A DNA stretch of 64,000 nt from a virus (IMGVR_UViG_3300028920_000029:96001-160000), one strand, 5' to 3'. Numbered from the stretch's first letter, positions 3,771 through 36,426 are shown. The notes: generated from the sequence alone by a model not told the origin. Made by a program: numbers and translations.

Positions 3771-3998
3771 CTACACCTCCTCCAACACTTTAATTACTTC
3801 CCACTCTACTCCGTCAAGAGTAAACTTCATGCCGACCTTCCACGTTACCGAGCCATACTCCTCAACCCCCACATCTATATTAAACTCTCTTTCCTCCCGC
3901 CTAACATAACCCATAGTAGTATCTGTATAACCATTGGTATCATCCACCACCGTGACTGACCGTTGCTCTGATAAATCCCTTGCTATAAATCTAGCCAT
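3771..3998 (-). CDS. hypothetical protein (start revised to MARFIA)
   Basis: GGAGGTG RBS before ATG 3998; promoter upstream. Confidence 0.65.
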   Translation of the reverse strand: MARFIARDLSEQRSVTVVDDTNGYTDTTMGYVRREEREFNIDVGVEEYGSVTWKVGMKFTLDGVEWEVIKVLEEV

Positions 3999-4047
3999 AA
4001 CTACACCTCCAAAGTAAACTTTTTTCACGACTAAAATCCTTATACAA

Positions 4048-4075
4048 AGTATACTATATATAATCAAAAAGTCAA
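4048..4075 (-). promoter_or_regulatory. sigma70/sigmaA-type promoter
   Basis: TTGACT-16nt-TATACT. Confidence 0.7.
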
Positions 4076-4080
4076 TCCCA

Positions 4081-4302
4081 TCACAAAAGTATATCGATAG
4101 ATGCTTTCTGTAAACTTTTTAAGTCATACTCAGCCTCCTCTTTCCAATGAGATAGTTCCTTAATAGCACAGGGTATACAGTAGATAGAGTTATTAAGGTG
4201 GACATACTTATGGTTAACACCTATCTCACCCCCGCACGAATTACACCATATAGGTATGGAGTTACTAACGTTATTGTATATAGTTATAGACATATCAAAC
4301 AC
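4081..4302 (-). CDS. Zn-finger protein, CIxCA paralog family
   Basis: CNSC...YCIPCAIKE; C-terminus IDILL like its neighbour. Confidence 0.65.
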   Translation of the reverse strand: MFDMSITIYNNVSNSIPIWCNSCGGEIGVNHKYVHLNNSIYCIPCAIKELSHWKEEAEYDLKSLQKASIDILL

Positions 4303-4306
4303 CTCC

Positions 4307-4546
4307 TTATAGTATGATGTCTATTGCTATAGTCTCCAGTTCATTTAGAGTTAGTTGTGTACGAAGAAGAGAGTAACTAGCGGGGTTCTTTGATTTTAAG
4401 TAGGCTATCCGTTCTCTTGATTGCTTAATAGCACAACGAATACACAGGGTATCTCCTATATTTATGACTACAGGATTACCTTTATGTATCTTTGTTTTAC
4501 ATAGTTTACAAGTTTCTTCCACGTTTGAGTGTGTTAGTATATACAT
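4307..4546 (-). CDS. Zn-finger protein, CIxCA paralog family
   Basis: CKLC...LCIRCAIKQ; C-terminus IDIIL. Confidence 0.65.
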   Translation of the reverse strand: MYILTHSNVEETCKLCKTKIHKGNPVVINIGDTLCIRCAIKQSRERIAYLKSKNPASYSLLRTQLTLNELETIAIDIIL

Positions 4547-4590
4547 AATAGTATCTCCTTTCCAAAGGGTATAGGGTATAACACAGGGGT

Positions 4591-4873
4591 ATTAAGGCTT
4601 AAGGAGGTCGTAGACCCGAGTGATTAAGGCGTACCCTATGATTTCATAGGGGGAATTAAGGCTTAAGGAGGTCGTAGACCCGAGTGATTAAGGCTTAAGT
4701 ATAGCCCCCACCGTACTCAAGGAACCTTAAGGCACCTACTTCTTGCGCCTACCTACTTTTCGGGGGACTCCGATGATATCATCGGAGGGACTAAGGGACT
4801 CGGGTGCATAGCACCTATTCGGGTGGCTCCGCCCGATGATATCATCGGAGGGACGCCGTTGCGTACGCAACGG
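4591..4873. repeat. non-coding block of direct repeats and perfect palindromes
   Basis: 40-bp direct repeat 4591-4630/4655-4694; palindromes CTCCGATGATATCATCGGAG (4768-4787), CCGATGATATCATCGG (4833-4848), CCGTTGCGTACGCAACGG (4856-4873). Confidence 0.9.
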
Positions 4874-5584: not shown

Positions 5585-6037
5585 TTAAAAGTAAGGGAAT
5601 AAGTAGACTGGACCGTTGTTATCCAAGACCCTTACTACCTCTTCTTCGTTTGGATACATATACATGGTGGAGCCGTATACCTCGGGTCCTAGCGGCCTGA
5701 TTATCTCATAACTTGTGGCTACACACGTGGTGACTTCCTCGGGTGATTCTCTGAAGGGCCGTATGTCATATATGTACTTACAAAGCTTCCTAAGTATAGC
5801 CAGCTTGGTATAAGTAGTTAAGCTAGGCCCCTTGAACCTAAAGGAAGCACCCTTGAGGCCTGCGTAAACTAGTTTTTTGCGGTGGCGCAGCTCCACCTTG
5901 TCCATGTCAAAGTACTTTACGTCTGCGTACTCGCTATCCTTAAAACACTCCTCTAAATACTCGCCTATTACTATGTACGCCCTGCTCATTTTTTTATGCT
6001 TTTTCAGTAGGTATGGGTCCAGCTCTGGTAGTTTCAT
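5585..6037 (-). CDS. hypothetical protein
   Basis: 150-aa ORF; AILRKL motif shared with neighbour. Confidence 0.65.
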   Translation of the reverse strand: MKLPELDPYLLKKHKKMSRAYIVIGEYLEECFKDSEYADVKYFDMDKVELRHRKKLVYAGLKGASFRFKGPSLTTYTKLAILRKLCKYIYDIRPFRESPEEVTTCVATSYEIIRPLGPEVYGSTMYMYPNEEEVVRVLDNNGPVYLFPYF

Positions 6038-6420
6038 CCTAAGTATACCTCCCCATCAGTATCCGACACATACCAGTAGGATTTTACGTGTTTATCAGCA
6101 TAGGCTTCCGCTTCTTTTACTGAGTTAAAGAGTAGCTTCTTCCCCCCTCTTTTCAGCACATCCCCACCTGTGATGCTGTCGGTGTTCTCATCTTCCGTGT
6201 ACCAGTTAATAACATACTGCTTTTTAACGGCTTTCTTCCTCGTCTTCGTCTTCATCCTAAGTATACCTCCCCTTCCTTTAGTAGACACAGGGTATGGCAT
6301 GCGTATGTTAGTGCTACTCCGCGCAAAATACGGCCCATGGATCCTACCCTTAAACATCGTTGGCGGGGTGAATTCTTCACGCATTCTTTCTTCTATGTCT
6401 AAGGGCTTAAAGTCACTCAT
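6034..6420 (-). CDS. hypothetical protein
   Basis: GRIHGPY resembles the 4877/5247 motif. Confidence 0.65.
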   Translation of the reverse strand: MSDFKPLDIEERMREEFTPPTMFKGRIHGPYFARSSTNIRMPYPVSTKGRGGILRMKTKTRKKAVKKQYVINWYTEDENTDSITGGDVLKRGGKKLLFNSVKEAEAYADKHVKSYWYVSDTDGEVYLG

Positions 6421-7015
6421 CTTTCTTCTTCTTTTCTTGCAGGTGCAGCAGGTAGTTTACATAATCATGGACGTTTACTGGCCTATGTATCCTCTCCAGC
6501 TTGTGCATCGCGGTATTAGCTAGGTGTTCCTTAAAGAAAGGCTGCTTTAATAGCTCTACCTGGAACTTAGTTAGGTGCTTTAACGTGCGGTCGATGGCCT
6601 TTATTAACCACGCGTCCAGCCTGTTTCCCTTTAAAGTGATTATCTTTGCTGTACCCGCATACTGTATTAGATACTCCTTAGGAGTAGAGTAGTATAAGCT
6701 CCTTATTTTACGGTAGGTCATCCAGCATAGCTTGCCTCCTGGAGAGTAAAAGGGTATCGCTATAGATGTGTTGCCAGTACCCATGCCCTCATCTTTTAGG
6801 GAGCTCCACCTTAACATCTTTTTTACCACCGCTAGCTTGAACGTATCAGTAGTCATCTTGGACCACTTAGTCTCTATAAACACCGCCATGTTTGCCGCAG
6901 GCCGATCTCTATACGAAGACGTGTCGTCGTCGGTCCACCAATAACTAAACAACTTCTGCAGTTTCTTAAGCTGATCCTCTTCCTTTTTGGTTAGTACCGT
7001 GGATTGTTTACTCAT
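6413..7015 (-). CDS. hypothetical protein
   Basis: 200-aa ORF, GGAGGTAA RBS. Confidence 0.7.
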   Translation of the reverse strand: MSKQSTVLTKKEEDQLKKLQKLFSYWWTDDDTSSYRDRPAANMAVFIETKWSKMTTDTFKLAVVKKMLRWSSLKDEGMGTGNTSIAIPFYSPGGKLCWMTYRKIRSLYYSTPKEYLIQYAGTAKIITLKGNRLDAWLIKAIDRTLKHLTKFQVELLKQPFFKEHLANTAMHKLERIHRPVNVHDYVNYLLHLQEKKKKDE

Positions 7016-29905: not shown

Positions 29906-30436
29906 TTACTCACTCTCCTTTAATATTTTAATACCATATTTTAATATCTTTAACCTCATTTTATTTTTTGCATAAGCAGCATCATAAGCAGCATCATAAG
30001 CAGCATAAGCAGCATCATAAGCAGCATCATAAGCAGCATCATAAGCAGCAGCATAAGCAGCATCATAAGCAACAGTATAAGCAGAATAAGCAGTAGTATA
30101 AGCAGTAGTATAAGCAGCATAAGCAGCCTTTTTATTTTTTTGTGTAGGATTTTTTATACATTTTTTTGCTGCCTCTATTGCTTTTCTCGGTCTATCGTCA
30201 CTCGGATATTTCTTTTCAAAAATATCTATTACTTGTTCTGCTGCATATACAGCATAAGATACATATTGCTTATATTCCATTACCCTAACAATTAACCAAT
30301 TAGCCCAGTCTAAATGCTTCTCTTTTATTAACTTCTTTACAACCTTTAATCCGTCTATCTCTTCCTGTTTGGTAAACCACTCAATACCCTCACTACAAGC
30401 ATCCTTTTCTTCTAACCATTTAACTGTTATATCCAT
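29906..30436 (-). CDS. phage protein with AAYD repeats (Imm5-like region)
   Basis: ACSEGIEWF, PSDDRPRKAIEAA, 12-nt tandem repeats. Confidence 0.7.
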   Translation of the reverse strand: MDITVKWLEEKDACSEGIEWFTKQEEIDGLKVVKKLIKEKHLDWANWLIVRVMEYKQYVSYAVYAAEQVIDIFEKKYPSDDRPRKAIEAAKKCIKNPTQKNKKAAYAAYTTAYTTAYSAYTVAYDAAYAAAYDAAYDAAYDAAYAAYDAAYDAAYAKNKMRLKILKYGIKILKESE

Positions 30437-31796: not shown

Positions 31797-31824
31797 AGTA
31801 TACTGATAGAATTGGATTTGTCAA
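31797..31824 (-). promoter_or_regulatory. sigma70/sigmaA-type promoter
   Basis: TTGACA-16nt-TATACT with AT-rich upstream element. Confidence 0.75.
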
Positions 31825-31845
31825 GAAAAAATTTAAGAAATTTTA

Positions 31846-31878
31846 TGGTGCCAGCAGATGGACTCGAACCACCGTAGC
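31846..31878 (-). pseudogene. orphan 3' half of a tRNA (T-arm, acceptor strand, CCA)
   Basis: GGTGG-TTCGAGT-CCATC-TGCTGGC-A-CCA; acceptor strand pairs with 32534-32540. Confidence 0.8.
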
Positions 31879-31882
31879 TATA

Positions 31883-31966
31883 TGGTGGGCAGGGATGGAT
31901 TCGAACCATCGTACCCGAGGGAACGGATTTACAGTCCGCCGCCTTTAACCGCTCAGCCACCTACCC
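31883..31966 (-). tRNA. tRNA-Tyr(GTA)
   Basis: cloverleaf, loop CT-GTA-AA, long variable arm, CCA. Confidence 0.95.
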
Positions 31967-32443
31967 ACGTTTTTTACTACCATATGTATCTGTTTGAGTA
32001 TGACAATTTGGACAAAGAATTCTTAGGTTCTCTAATCTATTGTCAGTATGATCACCGTTTATATGGTCTAAGTGCATACTTAGTTTTTTATTATTCCATA
32101 CGTTACCTTGACTACATTTCTCACATATTTCCTGCTTTAATCCAAACTCATATAATTTTTGTTTTAATGCATGACTTGTCCACTTAGCACCATCTAAACA
32201 AAGAACATTTTTTGTGAAGGACGTTATGGAGTGTTTCCTGCTATTGGCCCCAGTAGATGACCACCCACGATTTTTAAAATGGGACGTATCTAGCCCATAA
32301 TCCTTAATACGTTTAGCCACTAAATTGTGACTTCCTCCACCTACTCGTAAACCTAACTCTCTAATAATGTCCGCGACATTATAATGTCTTTTGACTAACT
32401 CGTTTAACAGTTCCTTACTATATTTTGTAGTATTTGCTTTCAT
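31961..32443 (-). CDS. HNH homing endonuclease (start revised to MKANTT)
   Basis: CEKC...LDHINGDHTDNRLENLRILCPNCH; stop codon lies inside the 5' end of tRNA-Tyr. Confidence 0.9.
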   Translation of the reverse strand: MKANTTKYSKELLNELVKRHYNVADIIRELGLRVGGGSHNLVAKRIKDYGLDTSHFKNRGWSSTGANSRKHSITSFTKNVLCLDGAKWTSHALKQKLYEFGLKQEICEKCSQGNVWNNKKLSMHLDHINGDHTDNRLENLRILCPNCHTQTDTYGSKKRG

Positions 32444-32470
32444 AGTAAACCTCCTATCTAGAATACTACT

Positions 32471-32499
32471 AGTATAGCATATTATAGTGACAAAAGCAA
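32471..32499 (-). promoter_or_regulatory. promoter of the HNH cassette
   Basis: TTGCTT-17nt-TATACT. Confidence 0.55.
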
Positions 32500-32504
32500 A
32501 TACC

Positions 32505-32540
32505 AACAGCCAGATGTCATTGCCGCTAGACTATACTGGC
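32505..32540 (-). pseudogene. orphan 5' half of a tRNA (GTN anticodon)
   Basis: GCCAGTA-TA-GTC..GAC-A-TCTGG-CTGT then breaks off. Confidence 0.8.
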
Positions 32541-32548
32541 ACTATATT

Positions 32549-32635
32549 TGGCGGAAAGCTCAGGACTTGAACCTGAACGGGATTGCTCCCCAGAGTTTAG
32601 CAAACTCTTGCCTTACCAATTAGGTCTAGCTTTCC
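32549..32635 (-). tRNA. tRNA-Ser(GCT)
   Basis: AGAGT-TTGCTAA-ACTCT, long variable arm. Confidence 0.92.
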
Positions 32636-32643
32636 TTTATTTC

Positions 32644-32739
32644 TGGAGGAGAGGGAGCGATTCGAACGCTCGAGCGTCATCTCTGACGCCACCTATTTTC
32701 AAGATAGGTAGAATAAACCTGACTCTCTTACACCTCTCC
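32644..32739 (-). tRNA. tRNA-Ser(TGA)
   Basis: CCTAT-CTTGAAA-ATAGG, long variable arm. Confidence 0.9.
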
Positions 32740-32745
32740 TCTATA

Positions 32746-32824
32746 TGGTTGCGGAGGTCAGATTTGCACTGACGTTGTTTCAGGGTATGAGCCTGCTGCT
32801 GGAACTACTCCAGCCCACTCCGCT
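32746..32824 (-). tRNA. tRNA-Met(CAT), initiator-like
   Basis: CT-CAT-AC loop, unpaired 1:72. Confidence 0.8.
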
Positions 32825-32831
32825 TATTTTT

Positions 32832-32908
32832 TGGTCCCCAAGCCTGGAGTTGAACCAAGAAAAAGCAGGTTTTGAATCTGCCGCCTATGCCAATTCGGCT
32901 ACTTGGGG
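32832..32908 (-). tRNA. tRNA-Leu(CAA)
   Basis: TT-CAA-AA loop, short variable region. Confidence 0.88.
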
Positions 32909-32909
32909 T

Positions 32910-32995
32910 TGGTGCGCCAGGTAGGACTTGCACCTACACGACCGAAGCCGACGGATCTTAAGTCCGTTGCGTCTGCTAAATTCCGCCACTAGCGC
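32910..32995 (-). tRNA. tRNA-Leu(TAA)
   Basis: ACGGA-CTTAAGA-TCCGT, long variable arm. Confidence 0.92.
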
Positions 32996-32996
32996 T

Positions 32997-33072
32997 TGGT
33001 GGGTCCACAGGGAATTGCACCCCAATCTTCCGATTAAAAGTCGGAAGCTCTAACTAATTGAGCTATAGACCC
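32997..33072 (-). tRNA. tRNA-Lys(TTT)
   Basis: TCCGA-CTTTTAA-TCGGA. Confidence 0.93.
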
Positions 33073-33073
33073 T

Positions 33074-33150
33074 TGGTGCCCCTAGAAGGATTTGAACCTT
33101 CAGAATTCTGATTCTAAGTCAGATAGCTATACCGATTCGCCTATAGGGGC
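33074..33150 (-). tRNA. tRNA-Leu(TAG)
   Basis: TCTGA-CTTAGAA-TCAGA, short variable region. Confidence 0.88.
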
Positions 33151-33152
33151 AT

Positions 33153-33227
33153 TGGTGCGTCGAGGTGGGAACGATCCACCGACCTTCTCCTTAAGAAGGA
33201 GCAGCTCTACCACTGAGCTACCGACGC
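33153..33227 (-). tRNA. tRNA-Lys(CTT)
   Basis: CTCC-TTCTTAA-GGAG. Confidence 0.9.
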
Positions 33228-33231
33228 ATTA

Positions 33232-33304
33232 AAGGTTGGGCTGCGTACACGCTGTATCGTTTCTCCAAGGATTACGCCTCCTAGGCGACCAACTACCCAA
33301 CCTT
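33232..33304 (-). ncRNA. unidentified ~73-nt structured RNA
   Basis: 9-bp closing stem AAGGTTGGG/CCCAACCTT with internal CGCCT/AGGCG hairpin; fills the gap between RNase P RNA and tRNA-Lys. Confidence 0.45.
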
Positions 33305-33312
33305 ATTTTTAA

Positions 33313-33603
33313 AAGTAATTCATAACCCAGGTTCTGTTTTTGCAGTCATTAATCTTAGCGTCCTTACCCGCGTGCTCCGTGAGGTCTCATCATCACACGC
33401 CTATTTGGACTTGCTCACAGTAAAGGTTGGTCGTCTCACTTGTTTTTAGTTTATATAATTTTCAGAATCTGAGTTTTTATAAAACTAAAAACAACTCGTC
33501 TCTGTCCCCTATTTGTCGCTCACGCGCCCAGCTTTTAAGACTGGTACTGCGCCTCAATTGAGCCTGGAGTTTCCTCGGTTTCCCGCGACTGCTTGAATCA
33601 CTC
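33313..33603 (-). ncRNA. rnpB: RNase P RNA
   Basis: P1 GAGTGATTCA/TGAATTACTT, P2 GCAGTC/GACTGC, GAGGAAACTCCAGG and AACAGAACCTGGGTTAT forming P4 with the bulged U; ACAGA, GAGCAAG motifs. Confidence 0.9.
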
Positions 33604-33816
33604 TTATTTTTTCAACAATGCAATTAATTCTCTTCTAGCTTTTGCTTCCTCTGGGGTATCGTGAACACTATGATCTACCCATTTAACATCCACTTCTGAA
33701 TACTCAACAAATCTACCATCAACTAAAATCCATCCTCGTTTTGTGTTTTTGTTTCCAAATAATACTGGTCCAGCAATTTGTACTTTTTCTCCTGTAGCTT
33801 TAATTATTGCTTCCAT
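33604..33816 (-). CDS. hypothetical protein (start revised to MEAIIK)
   Basis: AAGGAGGT RBS; the longer ORF in the track overlaps tRNA-Asp. Confidence 0.65.
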   Translation of the reverse strand: MEAIIKATGEKVQIAGPVLFGNKNTKRGWILVDGRFVEYSEVDVKWVDHSVHDTPEEAKARRELIALLKK

Positions 33817-33841
33817 TTGTTTACCTCCTTCCCGTAAATTT

Positions 33842-33916
33842 TGGCGCCCCACGACAGAGTTGAACTGTCCTATTCGGCGCGACAAGCCGACGTAATAGCC
33901 GATATACGAGTGGGGC
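33842..33916 (-). tRNA. tRNA-Asp(GTC)
   Basis: TCGGC-TTGTCGC-GCCGA, G73. Confidence 0.9.
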
Positions 33917-33928
33917 ACTATTTCTTTT

Positions 33929-33957
33929 AGTATACTTAAAATACCAACAAGCGTCAA
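33929..33957 (-). promoter_or_regulatory. internal promoter upstream of tRNA-Asp
   Basis: TTGACG-17nt-TATACT. Confidence 0.7.
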
Positions 33958-34199
33958 TTAGCTTTTTTATTTTTTACTATACTTCTTAATTTATTATGCA
34001 GCCCAGCAAAAATTGGCAAATAAACATTCTTAAACGTTTCTTTCCATTTTTCACAGTATGGACAACCGTCTATGTGATCGTCCTCATTTATGTGTTTCTT
34101 ACACATATGTACGCCGTCTTCAGCAATATAATAGTGTTCCGTCTCAGTTACCAAAATCGGTTCCGTTACACCTTTTCGATACAATAATTTTTTACCCAT
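33954..34199 (-). CDS. hypothetical protein
   Basis: 81 aa, AAGGAGGTGA RBS, own promoter. Confidence 0.65.
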   Translation of the reverse strand: MGKKLLYRKGVTEPILVTETEHYYIAEDGVHMCKKHINEDDHIDGCPYCEKWKETFKNVYLPIFAGLHNKLRSIVKNKKAN

Positions 34200-34219
34200 A
34201 GTTCACCTCCTTTCTTTTA

Positions 34220-34248
34220 AGTATACTTAAGGTTTTGACATATGTCAA
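34220..34248 (-). promoter_or_regulatory. internal promoter
   Basis: TTGACA-17nt-TATACT; -35 is half of the palindrome TTGACATATGTCAA. Confidence 0.75.
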
Positions 34249-34261
34249 GCCTTTTATTTCC

Positions 34262-34336
34262 TGGCACCCCCTGTAGGCTTCGCACCCACGCACCGCGGTC
34301 CGTAGCCGCGAGCTCTGTCTCCTGAGCTAAGGGGGT
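34262..34336 (-). tRNA. tRNA-Arg(ACG)
   Basis: CGCGG-CTACGGA-CCGCG. Confidence 0.9.
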
Positions 34337-34337
34337 A

Positions 34338-34412
34338 TGGTGTCCCTTGATGGAATCAAACCACCGTCTCAGCTTTAGGAAAGCCGTGTTCTATTCACTG
34401 TACTAAAGGGAC
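34338..34412 (-). tRNA. tRNA-Arg(CCT)
   Basis: CGGCT-TTCCTAA-AGCTG. Confidence 0.9.
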
Positions 34413-34413
34413 A

Positions 34414-34489
34414 TGGTGCCCTGAGAAGGACTCGCACCCTCGACCTACGGAGTAGAAATCCGCTGCTCTGTCTCCTGAGCTACCAGGGC
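34414..34489 (-). tRNA. tRNA-Arg(TCT)
   Basis: GCGGA-TTTCTAC-TCCGT. Confidence 0.9.
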
Positions 34490-34494
34490 CTTAC

Positions 34495-34570
34495 TGGTTG
34501 CGGGACCACGGATCGAACGTGGACTATTCTGAGTCAGGGTCAGATGTTTTGCCTATTAAACTATCCCGCA
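34495..34570 (-). tRNA. tRNA-Gln(CTG)
   Basis: TCTGA-CCCTGAC-TCAGA, T1:A72; C33 instead of U33. Confidence 0.85.
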
Positions 34571-34571
34571 A

Positions 34572-35117
34572 CTATATCTTCCATTTTTTACGTCTTTTAA
34601 TAACAGCTTGACCACTACAATTTTTAATAGTAGCAATCTCTTCGTTAGTTTTTCCGTCTTTTACTAAGGCCTCAAGTTCTCTTTTGTTCCATTCTATTTT
34701 TCCAGCTAATTTTCCTGCACACATTAAAGAACAAGTTTTTCTATATGCCATCTTTTCCTTGCCACATACTGGGCAAAAATCCTTTAATTCGTTTTTAGTA
34801 GAATCTGTTATAAGTTTATCATTAAATCTCAATGCTGTTTTTGGAATTATACTTATTAATCCATGCACTTCGCTATGACAATTGCTACAAACCATAACAC
34901 ATTTTTCTACTTCTTTTTTAATTTTTATCCACTTCGTAGGATCTCTAAGCATAAAAGCAATTCCGCTTTCTTTATCTTTACTATTTAAATGATGGAACTC
35001 TAAAGCGTCTATATGTTTATTATACCCACAAATGCAACATTTTCCACCAAAACCTTCTACTAGTTTCTTTTTTGTATTCCGTCTCCAACGTTTTACAGCC
35101 TCAGATTTAGCACTCAT
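34572..35117 (-). CDS. HNH endonuclease with C-terminal Zn-finger/HTH
   Basis: GGKCCICGY...ALEFHH...KCVMVCSNCHSEVH. Confidence 0.88.
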   Translation of the reverse strand: MSAKSEAVKRWRRNTKKKLVEGFGGKCCICGYNKHIDALEFHHLNSKDKESGIAFMLRDPTKWIKIKKEVEKCVMVCSNCHSEVHGLISIIPKTALRFNDKLITDSTKNELKDFCPVCGKEKMAYRKTCSLMCAGKLAGKIEWNKRELEALVKDGKTNEEIATIKNCSGQAVIKRRKKWKI

Positions 35118-35147
35118 AGTAAAACCTCCTTATAGTTTATTACTACA

Positions 35148-35177
35148 AGTATAACATAACACGGTGTGTTAATGCAA
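35148..35177 (-). promoter_or_regulatory. putative promoter of the second HNH
   Basis: TTGCAT-18nt-TATACT with extended -10 TG. Confidence 0.5.
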
Positions 35178-35192
35178 CTTGTTACGTTATAT

Positions 35193-35267
35193 TGGCTCCA
35201 GCGGGTGGAGTCGAACCACCATTTTACTCCTTAACAGGGAGGCGCATTACCATTATGCTACACTGGA
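35193..35267 (-). tRNA. tRNA-Asn(GTT)
   Basis: CT-GTT-AA, G73. Confidence 0.92.
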
Positions 35268-35269
35268 AC

Positions 35270-35346
35270 TGGTGCCTCCGAAAGGATTTGAACCTTTGGC
35301 CAAAGCGTTATCAACACTCTGCTCTACCAAGCTGAGCTACAGAGGC
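35270..35346 (-). tRNA. tRNA-Ile(GAT)
   Basis: TT-GAT-AA loop. Confidence 0.92.
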
Positions 35347-35347
35347 A

Positions 35348-35423
35348 TGGTGGAGACGATCGGGAACGATCCGACAACCCCCTGATTGCAAATCAGGCGC
35401 TCTCCCAATTGAGCTACGTCCCC
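35348..35423 (-). tRNA. tRNA-Ala(TGC)
   Basis: TT-TGC-AA, G3:U70. Confidence 0.93.
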
Positions 35424-35424
35424 A

Positions 35425-35500
35425 TGGTGGATACTTTTGGAGTCGAACCAAATTCTCTTGTTCTTCAGACAAGCGTGATGACCGCATTCACCAAATATCC
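35425..35500 (-). tRNA. tRNA-Phe(GAA)
   Basis: CTTGT-CTGAAGA-ACAAG. Confidence 0.9.
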
Positions 35501-35501
35501 A

Positions 35502-35578
35502 TGGTGCTCTCCGAAGGACTCGAACCTCCGACCCTCTCATTATGAGTGAGACGCTCTAACCGACTGAGCTAGAAGAGC
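35502..35578 (-). tRNA. tRNA-Ile2 or elongator Met (CAT)
   Basis: TCTCA-CTCATAA-TGAGA; identity not resolvable by eye. Confidence 0.85.
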
Positions 35579-35585
35579 AATATTC

Positions 35586-35659
35586 TGGAGAGGCGAGTAA
35601 GATTTTAACTTACCTTATCTGGGTTGCAACCAGACGCCTAGACACTTGGCTATCGCCTC
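35586..35659 (-). tRNA. tRNA-Cys(GCA)
   Basis: TT-GCA-AC, U73. Confidence 0.88.
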
Positions 35660-35670
35660 TCTTAATTCTC

Positions 35671-35745
35671 TGGTAGTCGGAGTGGGTACTGCCCCCACCT
35701 GGTCCTCTTTGTAAGAGAGGTGCATGACTAATCTGCCATCCGACT
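35671..35745 (-). tRNA. tRNA-Val(TAC)
   Basis: CCTCT-CTTACAA-AGAGG; atypical D and T loops. Confidence 0.85.
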
Positions 35746-35766
35746 TCTATTAAGATCTATAAATCC

Positions 35767-35840
35767 TGGTTGCCTCAGAACGGGTCGAACGTTCGCTACC
35801 TGTGTCAAAAACAGGCGTGCTACCACTACACTACAAGGCA
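35767..35840 (-). tRNA. tRNA-Gln(TTG)
   Basis: CCTGT-TTTTGAC-ACAGG, T1:A72. Confidence 0.9.
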
Positions 35841-35844
35841 TTTT

Positions 35845-35918
35845 TGGAGAGGGCTAAGGGACTCGAACCCTTTTTTTCAGTTTGGAAGACTGGAGTTAAA
35901 CCTATTAACTAAGCCCTC
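35845..35918 (-). tRNA. tRNA-Gly(TCC)
   Basis: CT-TCC-AA, U73. Confidence 0.88.
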
Positions 35919-35920
35919 TC

Positions 35921-35991
35921 TGGTACCACGAACTGGAATTGCACCAATCCTCTGGGCGTATGAAACCCTGAGTCCATCTAATGGTCGTGGC
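35921..35991 (-). tRNA. atypical tRNA(CAT) with shrunken D-arm
   Basis: acceptor GCCACGA/TCGTGGT, GGGT-TTCATAC-GCCC, T-arm, CCA; D-arm reduced to CCAT-TAG-ATGG. Confidence 0.7.
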
Positions 35992-35999
35992 CTATATTT

Positions 36000-36075
36000 T
36001 GGAGCCCACGGAGGGACTTGCACCCCCAACCGTCGGTTTACAGGACCGCTGCTCTTCTATTAAAGCTACGCGGGC
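36000..36075 (-). tRNA. tRNA-Thr(TGT)
   Basis: CGGT-CCTGTAA-ACCG, C2:G71; C33. Confidence 0.85.
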
Positions 36076-36085
36076 TCTTAATTTT

Positions 36086-36159
36086 TGGTGTGAGGCGGGG
36101 ATTTGAACCCCTCTGGGAGAGCCACAATCTCCCGTGCTAACCATTACACTAGCCCCACC
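36086..36159 (-). tRNA. tRNA-His(GTG)
   Basis: TT-GTG-GC loop, encoded G-1. Confidence 0.9.
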
Positions 36160-36162
36160 ACT

Positions 36163-36237
36163 TGGCACCGCCGTAAGGAATCGAACCCTATCTTTCTGTT
36201 CTGGAGACAGATGTGCTAACCATTACACTACTGCGGC
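36163..36237 (-). tRNA. tRNA-Trp(CCA)
   Basis: TCTGT-CTCCAGA-ACAGA, G73. Confidence 0.92.
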
Positions 36238-36240
36238 ATT

Positions 36241-36317
36241 TGGTGACGCATGTGGGACTCGAACCCACAATCCTCAGACTGAAAATCTGATGGCTTAAAC
36301 CATTTGCCTAATGCGCC
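36241..36317 (-). tRNA. tRNA-Glu(TTC)
   Basis: TCAGA-TTTTCAG-TCTGA. Confidence 0.92.
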
Positions 36318-36349
36318 ACATCTCTTTAACTGTTAAGAACTATAAGTGC

Positions 36350-36426
36350 TGGTCTAGGTGGAAGGATTTGAACCTTCGACATCTTGCTTCCAAGGCAAGC
36401 AGGCTACCAGACTGCCCCACACCTAG
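36350..36426 (-). tRNA. tRNA-Pro(TGG), first gene of the array
   Basis: CTTGC-CTTGGAA-GCAAG, C1:G72. Confidence 0.92.

Follow-up and report, generated by a model that had tools for sequence, protein, structure and literature searches.

Homing endonucleases usually spare their host either by hiding in self-splicing introns or inteins or by sitting between genes. Here we describe a phage locus at which an HNH endonuclease gene and an intact tyrosine transfer RNA (tRNA) gene lie together inside a second tRNA-Tyr gene, which is split in two. The locus belongs to a 64,000-nucleotide stretch of viral DNA (IMGVR_UViG_3300028920_000029:96001-160000, hereafter the window) that comprises bases 96001-160000 of a 173,362-bp IMG/VR virus record, complete according to CheckV. 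This split tRNA with its HNH cassette is a previously undescribed variant among the free-standing homing endonucleases of tRNA clusters, and our literature search found no published description of a nuclease cassette that brings a tRNA of the same isotype into a tRNA gene.

In phages T4 and T6, SegB is a free-standing GIY-YIG homing endonuclease encoded in a tRNA gene cluster (PMC2330249, PMC13096335), and a unit consisting of SegB and tRNA-Tyr has been described (PMC13096335). Like the HNH gene of the window, segB sits among phage tRNA genes, and in T6 it is likewise linked to tRNA-Tyr. SegB cuts inside the tRNA genes of relatives, its preferred site being the tRNA-Asn gene of T2L, and its homing alters the tRNA gene set. 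An overlap in which the stop codon falls within a tRNA has been described for T4 segB and tRNA-Arg, together with a proposed control of expression, and we observed the same overlap for the HNH gene of the window. However, the two enzymes differ in fold (GIY-YIG versus HNH), and while SegB recognizes a T-loop motif and is located between tRNA genes, the element in the window interrupts a tRNA gene at its anticodon loop. Furthermore, unlike SegB, the window element leaves both tRNA halves and brings a same-isotype tRNA. The F-Tfl enzymes of phage T5 are also encoded by free-standing endonuclease open reading frames (ORFs) in a phage tRNA cluster, and control of their expression by processing of the tRNA transcript has been proposed; unlike what we describe for the window, a nested or split tRNA is not mentioned in the portion of the T5 literature that was available.

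Three further kinds of interrupted gene bear comparison with the locus. Group I introns that carry homing endonucleases are known from tRNA anticodon loops, including those of tRNA-Leu(UAA) and, with I-Ssp6803I, tRNA-fMet (PMC3984707; bioRxiv 10.1101/2020.01.27.920355). They share with the window a tRNA target and insertion in the anticodon loop, and homologs of the window HNH protein occur in phage tRNA-Leu(UAA) introns; in the window, however, the ribozyme is absent, the exons are incomplete and rescue comes from a second gene rather than from splicing. Endonuclease "transposition" is known to split genes, as for mobE in nrdA of Aeh1 and mobA in T4 gene 39/60 (PMC2988022). There too, a free-standing endonuclease gene lies inside a conserved gene without an intron, but the split proteins reassemble and are functional, whereas the split tRNA of the window lacks an anticodon arm and cannot do so, and a spare copy travels with the nuclease. 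Finally, the available part of a report on Lak megaphages describes "enigmatic" introns in tRNA genes; a tRNA-Tyr(GTA) gene holds one of them, and another may encode a tRNA (PMC6784885). As in the window, a tRNA is interrupted in its anticodon region by an insert with a tRNA-like gene that fits no known intron class. That part of the report describes no nuclease gene in the inserts and treats them as introns, whereas in the window 15 nucleotides of the host tRNA are missing.

The locus lies on the minus strand, and its coordinates are given in window numbering. Eight nucleotides past tRNA-Ser(GCT), the 5' fragment of the outer tRNA-Tyr(GTA) gene (32506-32540), recognized from its sequence, its D loop and blastn to an intact homolog discussed below, covers tRNA positions 1-35. 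It comprises an acceptor strand (GCCAGTA) followed by T8, a D arm of the class II type in which a stem of 3 bp encloses the loop TAGCGGCAAT, the 5' anticodon strand TCTGG, and CTGT, the start of the anticodon loop, after which all resemblance to a tRNA ends. A leader of 62 nucleotides follows (32444-32505), read from the sequence and presumably serving expression of the insert. It contains a strong ribosome-binding site, AGGAGG (32455-32450), and, by eye, a possible extended -10 element, TGC-TATACT (32479-32471). The HNH gene (31961-32443) encodes 160 amino acids and ends in GGG-TAG, a final codon and stop provided by the first six bases of the inner tRNA-Tyr(GTA) gene (31883-31966), which is intact, of class II and with an encoded CCA (ARAGORN; Rfam, 58.9 bits; genome scan). 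A 4-nucleotide spacer, TATA (31879-31882), forms the right junction of the insert, since homology to the intact gene begins at 31878. The outer 3' fragment (31846-31878) then supplies GCTAC, the end of a long variable arm, a T arm of GGTGG, TTCGAGT and CCATC, the acceptor strand TGCTGGC, A73 and CCA; it was identified from the sequence, from blastn and from its pairing with the 5' fragment. Thus, an insert of 627 nucleotides stands in for about 15 nucleotides of the outer gene, running from anticodon position 36 to the middle of the variable arm. The loss takes in position 36, all of the 3' anticodon strand and the greater part of the variable arm. The left junction falls directly after position 35 (CTGT) and the right junction falls inside the variable arm.

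The two outer acceptor strands pair at 7 of 7 positions. As a chance control, the whole 64-kb window was scanned for orphan sites resembling a tRNA 5' half (87 sites) or a T arm (10 sites). These gave 17 candidate pairs within 2.5 kb of each other, for which 0.018 perfect pairings are expected; the single one observed is the pair of outer fragments. The complementarity of the halves reported in the initial annotation is confirmed, as is its description of an HNH gene and an intact tRNA-Tyr between them, the tRNA supplying the stop codon. The promoter placed within the insert is weak: a scan for sigma-70 consensus sites upstream of the HNH ORF returned none at the threshold of 9/12 matches, and the -10 element is visible by eye only. 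The 3' anticodon strand said to be missing, CCAGA, is indeed absent and is present at that place in the intact homolog; the loss of about 15 nucleotides extends beyond it. We found no match to the group I intron model Intron_gpI (RF00028) in 31800-32600, even at an E value of 10 (Rfam), and the non-coding DNA of the insert amounts to just 66 nucleotides (62 + 4). With no detectable core and with exons about 15 nucleotides short of the intact gene, the locus is not a group I intron. Nor do the two halves together make a complete tRNA, as those of a split, trans-spliced tRNA of the Nanoarchaeum type or of a tRNA with a bulge-helix-bulge intron would. Instead, the HNH ORF lies in a tRNA cluster, between tRNA-Ser(GCT) and tRNA-Tyr and outside any self-splicing intron, which is the position of a free-standing endonuclease gene. 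When introns were allowed, ARAGORN did not call the split gene, and its calls on the loci compared were mostly chimeric and false.

Both outer pieces derive from one tRNA-Tyr(GTA) gene, because they are colinear with an intact gene of that identity, carry a Tyr-specific D loop and have an acceptor stem and A73 that, in IMG/VR, occur together mostly in Tyr. The intact gene lies at 7811-7893 of L301, an unrelated phage (here and below, numbers with the prefix L denote viral loci used for comparison). Its anticodon arm reads TCTGG, CTGTAAA and CCAGA and is followed by a long variable arm that ends in GCTAC and by the same T arm. Blastn aligned window positions 32506-32536 with L301 7859-7889 (90% identity) and 31845-31878 with L301 7810-7843 (91% identity); the two matches are colinear, and the 15 nucleotides of L301 that lie between them have no counterpart in the window. 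All differences fall in stems and leave standard pairs, most of them being compensated on both sides. Another intact homolog of the outer gene was found in L241. Surveys of tRNAs point to the same identity. Six IMG/VR tRNAs share the acceptor stem and A73 of the outer gene, four being Tyr(GTA) and two, from one phage, Thr. A D loop of the form TAG[CT]GGCAAT was present in 2 of 1563 distinct phage tRNAs, collected regardless of anticodon, and both are Tyr(GTA), while a pattern combining the TAGCGGCAAT-type D loop with the Tyr anticodon loop matched intact genes of the target type in 102 viral contigs. The outer gene has the class II body, A73, D loop and G34-T35 of this tRNA-Tyr type, and anticodon position 36 itself is lost. 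The uninterrupted gene that the initial annotation had suggested seeking was thus available, although in an unrelated phage, and its GTA anticodon, together with the Tyr-specific D loop, agrees with the assignment of the remnant CTGT and A73 to Tyr rather than Asn.

Three other isotypes were considered for the split gene and rejected. The tRNA-Asn of the window was the first best match, but the D loop of the fragments, their class II traits and the comparison with L301 all point to Tyr. Thr and Val had both been reached by elimination, but a tRNA-Thr(TGT) gene is present at 36000-36075, and the fragments are unlike Val, which is the only isotype absent from the genome. In a separate set of loci we observed class II tRNAs with the same D loop, long variable arm and A73 but with the Lys anticodons TTT or CTT (L370 2709-2793, L379 4232-4316 and 4407-4490, and L380 3714-3798); these look like Tyr-derived tRNAs in which the anticodon has been switched.

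The HNH ORF (32443-31961) matches phrog_10822, annotated as HNH endonuclease, over residues 2-159 with an E value of 1.7e-45, and it scores just below the Pfam cut-offs for HNH_3 (22.1 versus 24.8 bits) and HNH (20.0 versus 21.4 bits). Its two CxxC pairs and its H..N..H residues are intact; C107, C110, H127, N135, N139, C144, C147 and H148 are invariant in an alignment of the 14 closest homologs (alignment A1). In the AlphaFold model (predicted local distance difference test score, 82), the N-terminal part is helical, and a beta-beta-alpha-metal domain makes up the C-terminal part. Foldseek gave the model weak matches only, the best of which were mostly to HNH nucleases, for example McrA and the HNH enzymes GVE2 and Gme, and a sequence search of solved structures returned no relative. 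The gene is present in a single copy in the genome. Homologs number 4569 proteins, with those among the matches listed in a metagenome scan being at most 47% identical, and tRNA genes were found at 136 of the first 140 homolog loci scanned (58/60 and 78/80).

At about 20 of the 80 loci fetched with the closest homolog, the HNH gene lies inside tRNA-Leu(UAA), which is split after U34 by an insert of 720-870 nucleotides that holds group I core strings. Such introns were seen in L106, L110, L113, L114, L118, L122, L126, L137, L145, L147, L157, L162, L181 and others, with the HNH gene at about 6000-6500 in most. In L114 the Intron_gpI match is below threshold (31.7 bits, E value 4e-6); the Rfam gathering threshold misses these introns because the HNH ORF splits the core. 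The family therefore includes intron-carried endonucleases at tRNA anticodon loops, and these members would be expected to cut the intron-less tRNA gene. A 2014 review placed all phage introns then known in protein-coding genes (PMC3984707). In three of the loci, the intron-borne HNH ORF contains in-frame stops at conserved positions (L118 6001-6495, L122 5992-6486 and L113 5986-6498): TGA at the Trp of relatives in L118 and L122, and TAG in L113, where relatives have Gln at one of its two sites. This suggests that these three phages use recoded stop codons.

The arrangement seen in the window recurs in unrelated phages. The closest homolog of the HNH protein, P0003 (64% amino acid and 71.5% nucleotide identity), is encoded on L103, a 99,954-bp viral contig, in the same order: outer 5' half, HNH gene, tRNA-Tyr(GTA) and outer 3' half. 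The break in L103 falls after T33. Its 5' half has a D loop identical to that of the window and ends 12 nucleotides ahead of the HNH start, and the HNH stop again lies inside the inner tRNA-Tyr(GTA), directly after which come the outer 3' anticodon strand, long variable arm, T arm and acceptor strand. The outer acceptor strands of L103 also pair at 7 of 7 positions. Same-isotype tRNAs of L103 and the window phage are 65% identical, the background for unrelated phages; window DNA lying upstream of the array, 7.6 kb in all, had no match in the L103 record, and the cassette stands at the start of the L103 array as opposed to the end of the window array. In L371, a TAGCGGCAAT-type tRNA-Tyr is broken after T33 and followed by an HNH protein of 142 amino acids that aligns end to end with 31% identity, has the same C-terminus and, as in the window, takes its GGG-TAG from the first bases of an inner tRNA-Tyr; an outer 3' fragment was not seen in L371. 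L206 has a 27-nucleotide, near-identical copy of the tRNA-Tyr 5' end, then the HNH gene and then a complete tRNA-Tyr. Interruption of this tRNA-Tyr type is also probable at the contig ends of L378 and L386, where the gene breaks off at the loop. The break in L378 (minus strand, from 483 downward) follows C-T-G-T as it does in the window, and the ORF beyond it, inside which the contig ends, has no detectable similarity to the window HNH protein and no Pfam match.

Nested cassettes are not confined to tRNA-Tyr. A Gln-type outer gene holds an inner tRNA-Gln in L057 and L163, a Leu-type outer gene holds an inner tRNA-Leu in L170, and overall the inner isotype equals that of the split gene in 7 of 8 nested lineages. 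In L089 and L095 the insert contains the HNH gene only and is too small for a ribozyme. The L095 insert (3896-4707) lies in a tRNA-Ala-like gene (G3:U70) from which the anticodon triplet is absent. A perfect inverted repeat of 16 bp at the two ends of this insert would lengthen the anticodon stem. On the HNH tree, the nested state needs at least 4 origins (FastTree, weak deep branches), and the window and L103 proteins fall outside the clade of intron-borne genes, again with weak deep support.

Comparison of the outer gene of the window with that of L103 showed differences in 9 base pairs. All 9 are compensated, no pair is broken, and the D and T loops are identical. A single ancient insertion followed by neutral decay was rejected, as no stem pair is broken in either copy despite an HNH nucleotide identity of 71.5%. 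Either two native tRNA-Tyr genes would have been hit fairly recently, or else the fragments would be under selection. Because these differences are compensated and those from L301 likewise leave standard pairs, insertion seems to have taken place long after the HNH genes diverged, and this would imply repeated mobility.

Taken together, these observations favor the reading that a phage tRNA-Tyr(GTA) gene has been invaded by a free-standing HNH homing-endonuclease cassette, in which the HNH gene and its own tRNA-Tyr(GTA) move as a unit; we give this a probability of roughly 0.75. The initial annotation had likewise proposed a homing cassette carrying a substitute tRNA. That proposal gains support from the recurrence in L103 and L371, from the match of isotypes and from the finding that the inner tRNA-Tyr (31966-31883) is the only tRNA-Tyr in the 173-kb genome by a whole-genome tRNA scan. 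As for cleavage specificity, repair route, resistance of the inner gene and control of expression, we infer the following course. In a co-infecting phage, the nuclease would recognize an intact tRNA-Tyr gene of the TAGCGGCAAT type and cut it in or beside the anticodon loop, a site consistent with breaks after position 33 or 35 and with the intron-borne members of the family. Repair would copy the HNH gene and the inner tRNA into the break, either with the conserved tRNA halves as short homology arms or by microhomology joining with resection. The target would be left in two pieces, with the window copy also losing its 15 or so nucleotides, and since the anticodon and the 3' strand are lost, the split gene could neither decode nor become a target again. 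Tyrosine decoding would be taken over by the inner tRNA, whose D arm and anticodon stem differ from those of the target, so that its gene is presumably uncleaved; in all three cassettes (window, L103 and L371) the inner tRNA lacks the D loop of the target, and this absence is a candidate basis for resistance. Lastly, because the stop codon of the HNH ORF lies inside the inner tRNA, processing of that tRNA by ribonuclease P (RNase P) would strip the last codon and stop from the HNH message and may keep the nuclease low.

Several observations weigh against this course of events. The anticodon loop of the inner tRNA, CTGTAAA, is the same as that of the target, and resistance would therefore need to reside in the D arm or the stems. 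With regard to CCA, the inner tRNA and the outer fragment each conform to the array in which they reside, CCA being encoded in the window and absent in L103; such a match would be unlike a fresh import unless the cassette adapts. In one nested lineage, L124, the isotypes are unlike, a Ser-like outer gene holding an inner tRNA-Cys. An empty site at the exact locus could not be demonstrated without a close relative of the phage: megablast of the locus against phage records gave only a 46-nucleotide tRNA match, exact-pattern scans for the joined outer gene and for the 5' half gave no match, the relatives of a neighboring protein (29906-30436) are at most 62% identical and have no tRNA arrays nearby, and a neighboring protein of 93 amino acids had no homolog except itself among 5.8 billion proteins. 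Moreover, the outer fragments are without any decay, which also fits selection on the fragments.

That last point leads to an explanation that we consider improbable, namely that the fragments have been kept by selection and fold into a tRNA-like handle for tRNA-processing enzymes. The outer fragments would then be a working tRNA-shaped RNA, a clamp that encloses both the HNH message and the inner tRNA and on which RNase P, ribonuclease Z (RNase Z) or the CCA-adding enzyme would act, setting the ends or the stability of the message; in complete copies such as L103, excision and religation might proceed without a ribozyme. If true, a tRNA nested within a tRNA would be a ribozyme-free means of packaging, processing or excising a mobile nuclease gene in bacteria. 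Such a handle would account for the fact that every retained stem is perfect and CCA is retained, and for the compensated pairs and identical loops of the window and L103. Cofolding of the fragments restores the acceptor, D and T helices, and the Lak phages, in the part of the report available, have tRNA introns possibly encoding a tRNA (PMC6784885). However, the window copy is without the 3' anticodon strand and the anticodon, L371 is without a 3' fragment, and L206 retains 27 nucleotides only. The RNase P site of the inner tRNA is about 545 nucleotides from the end of the 5' fragment, and two cuts would therefore not give joinable ends; joining the ends in L103 would create a 6-nucleotide loop with no sensible anticodon, and RtcB is not encoded by the phage. 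Recent hits on two different native tRNA-Tyr genes would produce compensated differences just as readily, and the window fragments are 90-91% identical to the intact gene of the unrelated phage L301.

A scar of local rearrangement and a decayed intron are less likely than a homing cassette. It is doubtful that the locus arose by nuclease-driven rearrangement of two neighboring tRNA-Tyr paralogs and a free-standing HNH gene, in which unequal recombination, or segmental amplification and collapse, left pieces of a paralog on both sides. SegB does drive tandem amplification of tRNA-Tyr and segB through microhomology, with truncations (PMC13096335), the 27-nucleotide duplicate in L206 is near-identical, and within the window the T arms of the inner and outer genes are alike at all but 2 of 17 positions. 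The inner and outer genes are nonetheless not recent duplicates, because their acceptor stems, D arms and anticodon stems are strongly diverged; furthermore, this order and break point are shared by unrelated phages whose arrays carry the unit at other places, and the fragments are exactly colinear with one gene, with only about 15 nucleotides absent. Still more remote is a tRNA-Tyr group I intron with an HNH gene that lost its ribozyme core and later captured a tRNA-Tyr. This would agree with the HNH relatives in group I introns of tRNA anticodon loops, where the core lies downstream of the ORF, in the place taken here by the inner tRNA, and with the Intron_gpI match in L114 (31.7 bits, E value 4e-6). 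It would not agree with the lack of any such signal in the window even at an E value of 10, the room of just 62 + 4 non-coding nucleotides, or the position of the window and L103 HNH proteins outside the intron-borne clade, weakly supported as the deep branches of that FastTree tree are. In addition, the junction of HNH gene and tRNA-Tyr is conserved down to 31% protein identity, which marks the tRNA as an old part of the unit.

If the locus is a homing cassette with a spare tRNA, this locus and the related ones indicate that RNA genes allow a third solution, in which a nuclease fused to a spare same-isotype tRNA can land inside a conserved tRNA gene and inactivate it without ribozyme repair. 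Because unrelated phages share conserved tRNA sequences, these could act both as target and as portable homology arms, which would explain how related cassettes reach unrelated phages. Such cassettes would bear on the shuffling of phage tRNA arrays, on the "pseudo" or missing tRNAs that tRNA scanners report in phage genomes, and on the spread of tRNA-Tyr, a tRNA that has been linked to escape from tRNA-cleaving defenses (PMC13096335).

The genome has a GC content of 39.8% and carries 27 tRNA genes, all in a single minus-strand array (31883-36426; ARAGORN, Rfam and whole-genome tRNA scan), which cover 19 amino acids and leave Val as the sole isotype without a gene. The tRNA-Thr(TGT) gene (36000-36075, minus strand) was missed by default ARAGORN and found by Rfam (46.2 bits) and by ARAGORN with -ps90. 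Beyond the cassette, a strong sigma-70-like promoter on the minus strand (31797-31824; TTGACA, 16 nucleotides, TATACT; 11/12 matches in the promoter scan) serves the next gene, an ORF of 80 amino acids (31757-31515), and marks the end of the array. Within the array, between tRNA-Lys(CTT) and tRNA-Asp, we observed a bacterial class A RNase P RNA (33308-33604, minus strand) with a score of 112 bits (gathering score 100). A second HNH gene, unrelated to the first (34572-35117, minus strand; PHROG 35854, 2255 and 3106), lies between tRNA-Asn and tRNA-Gln(CTG). No tRNA fragments were seen around it, and its stop codon is 1 nucleotide upstream of the start of tRNA-Gln, which places it, like the first HNH gene, directly against the tRNA that follows.

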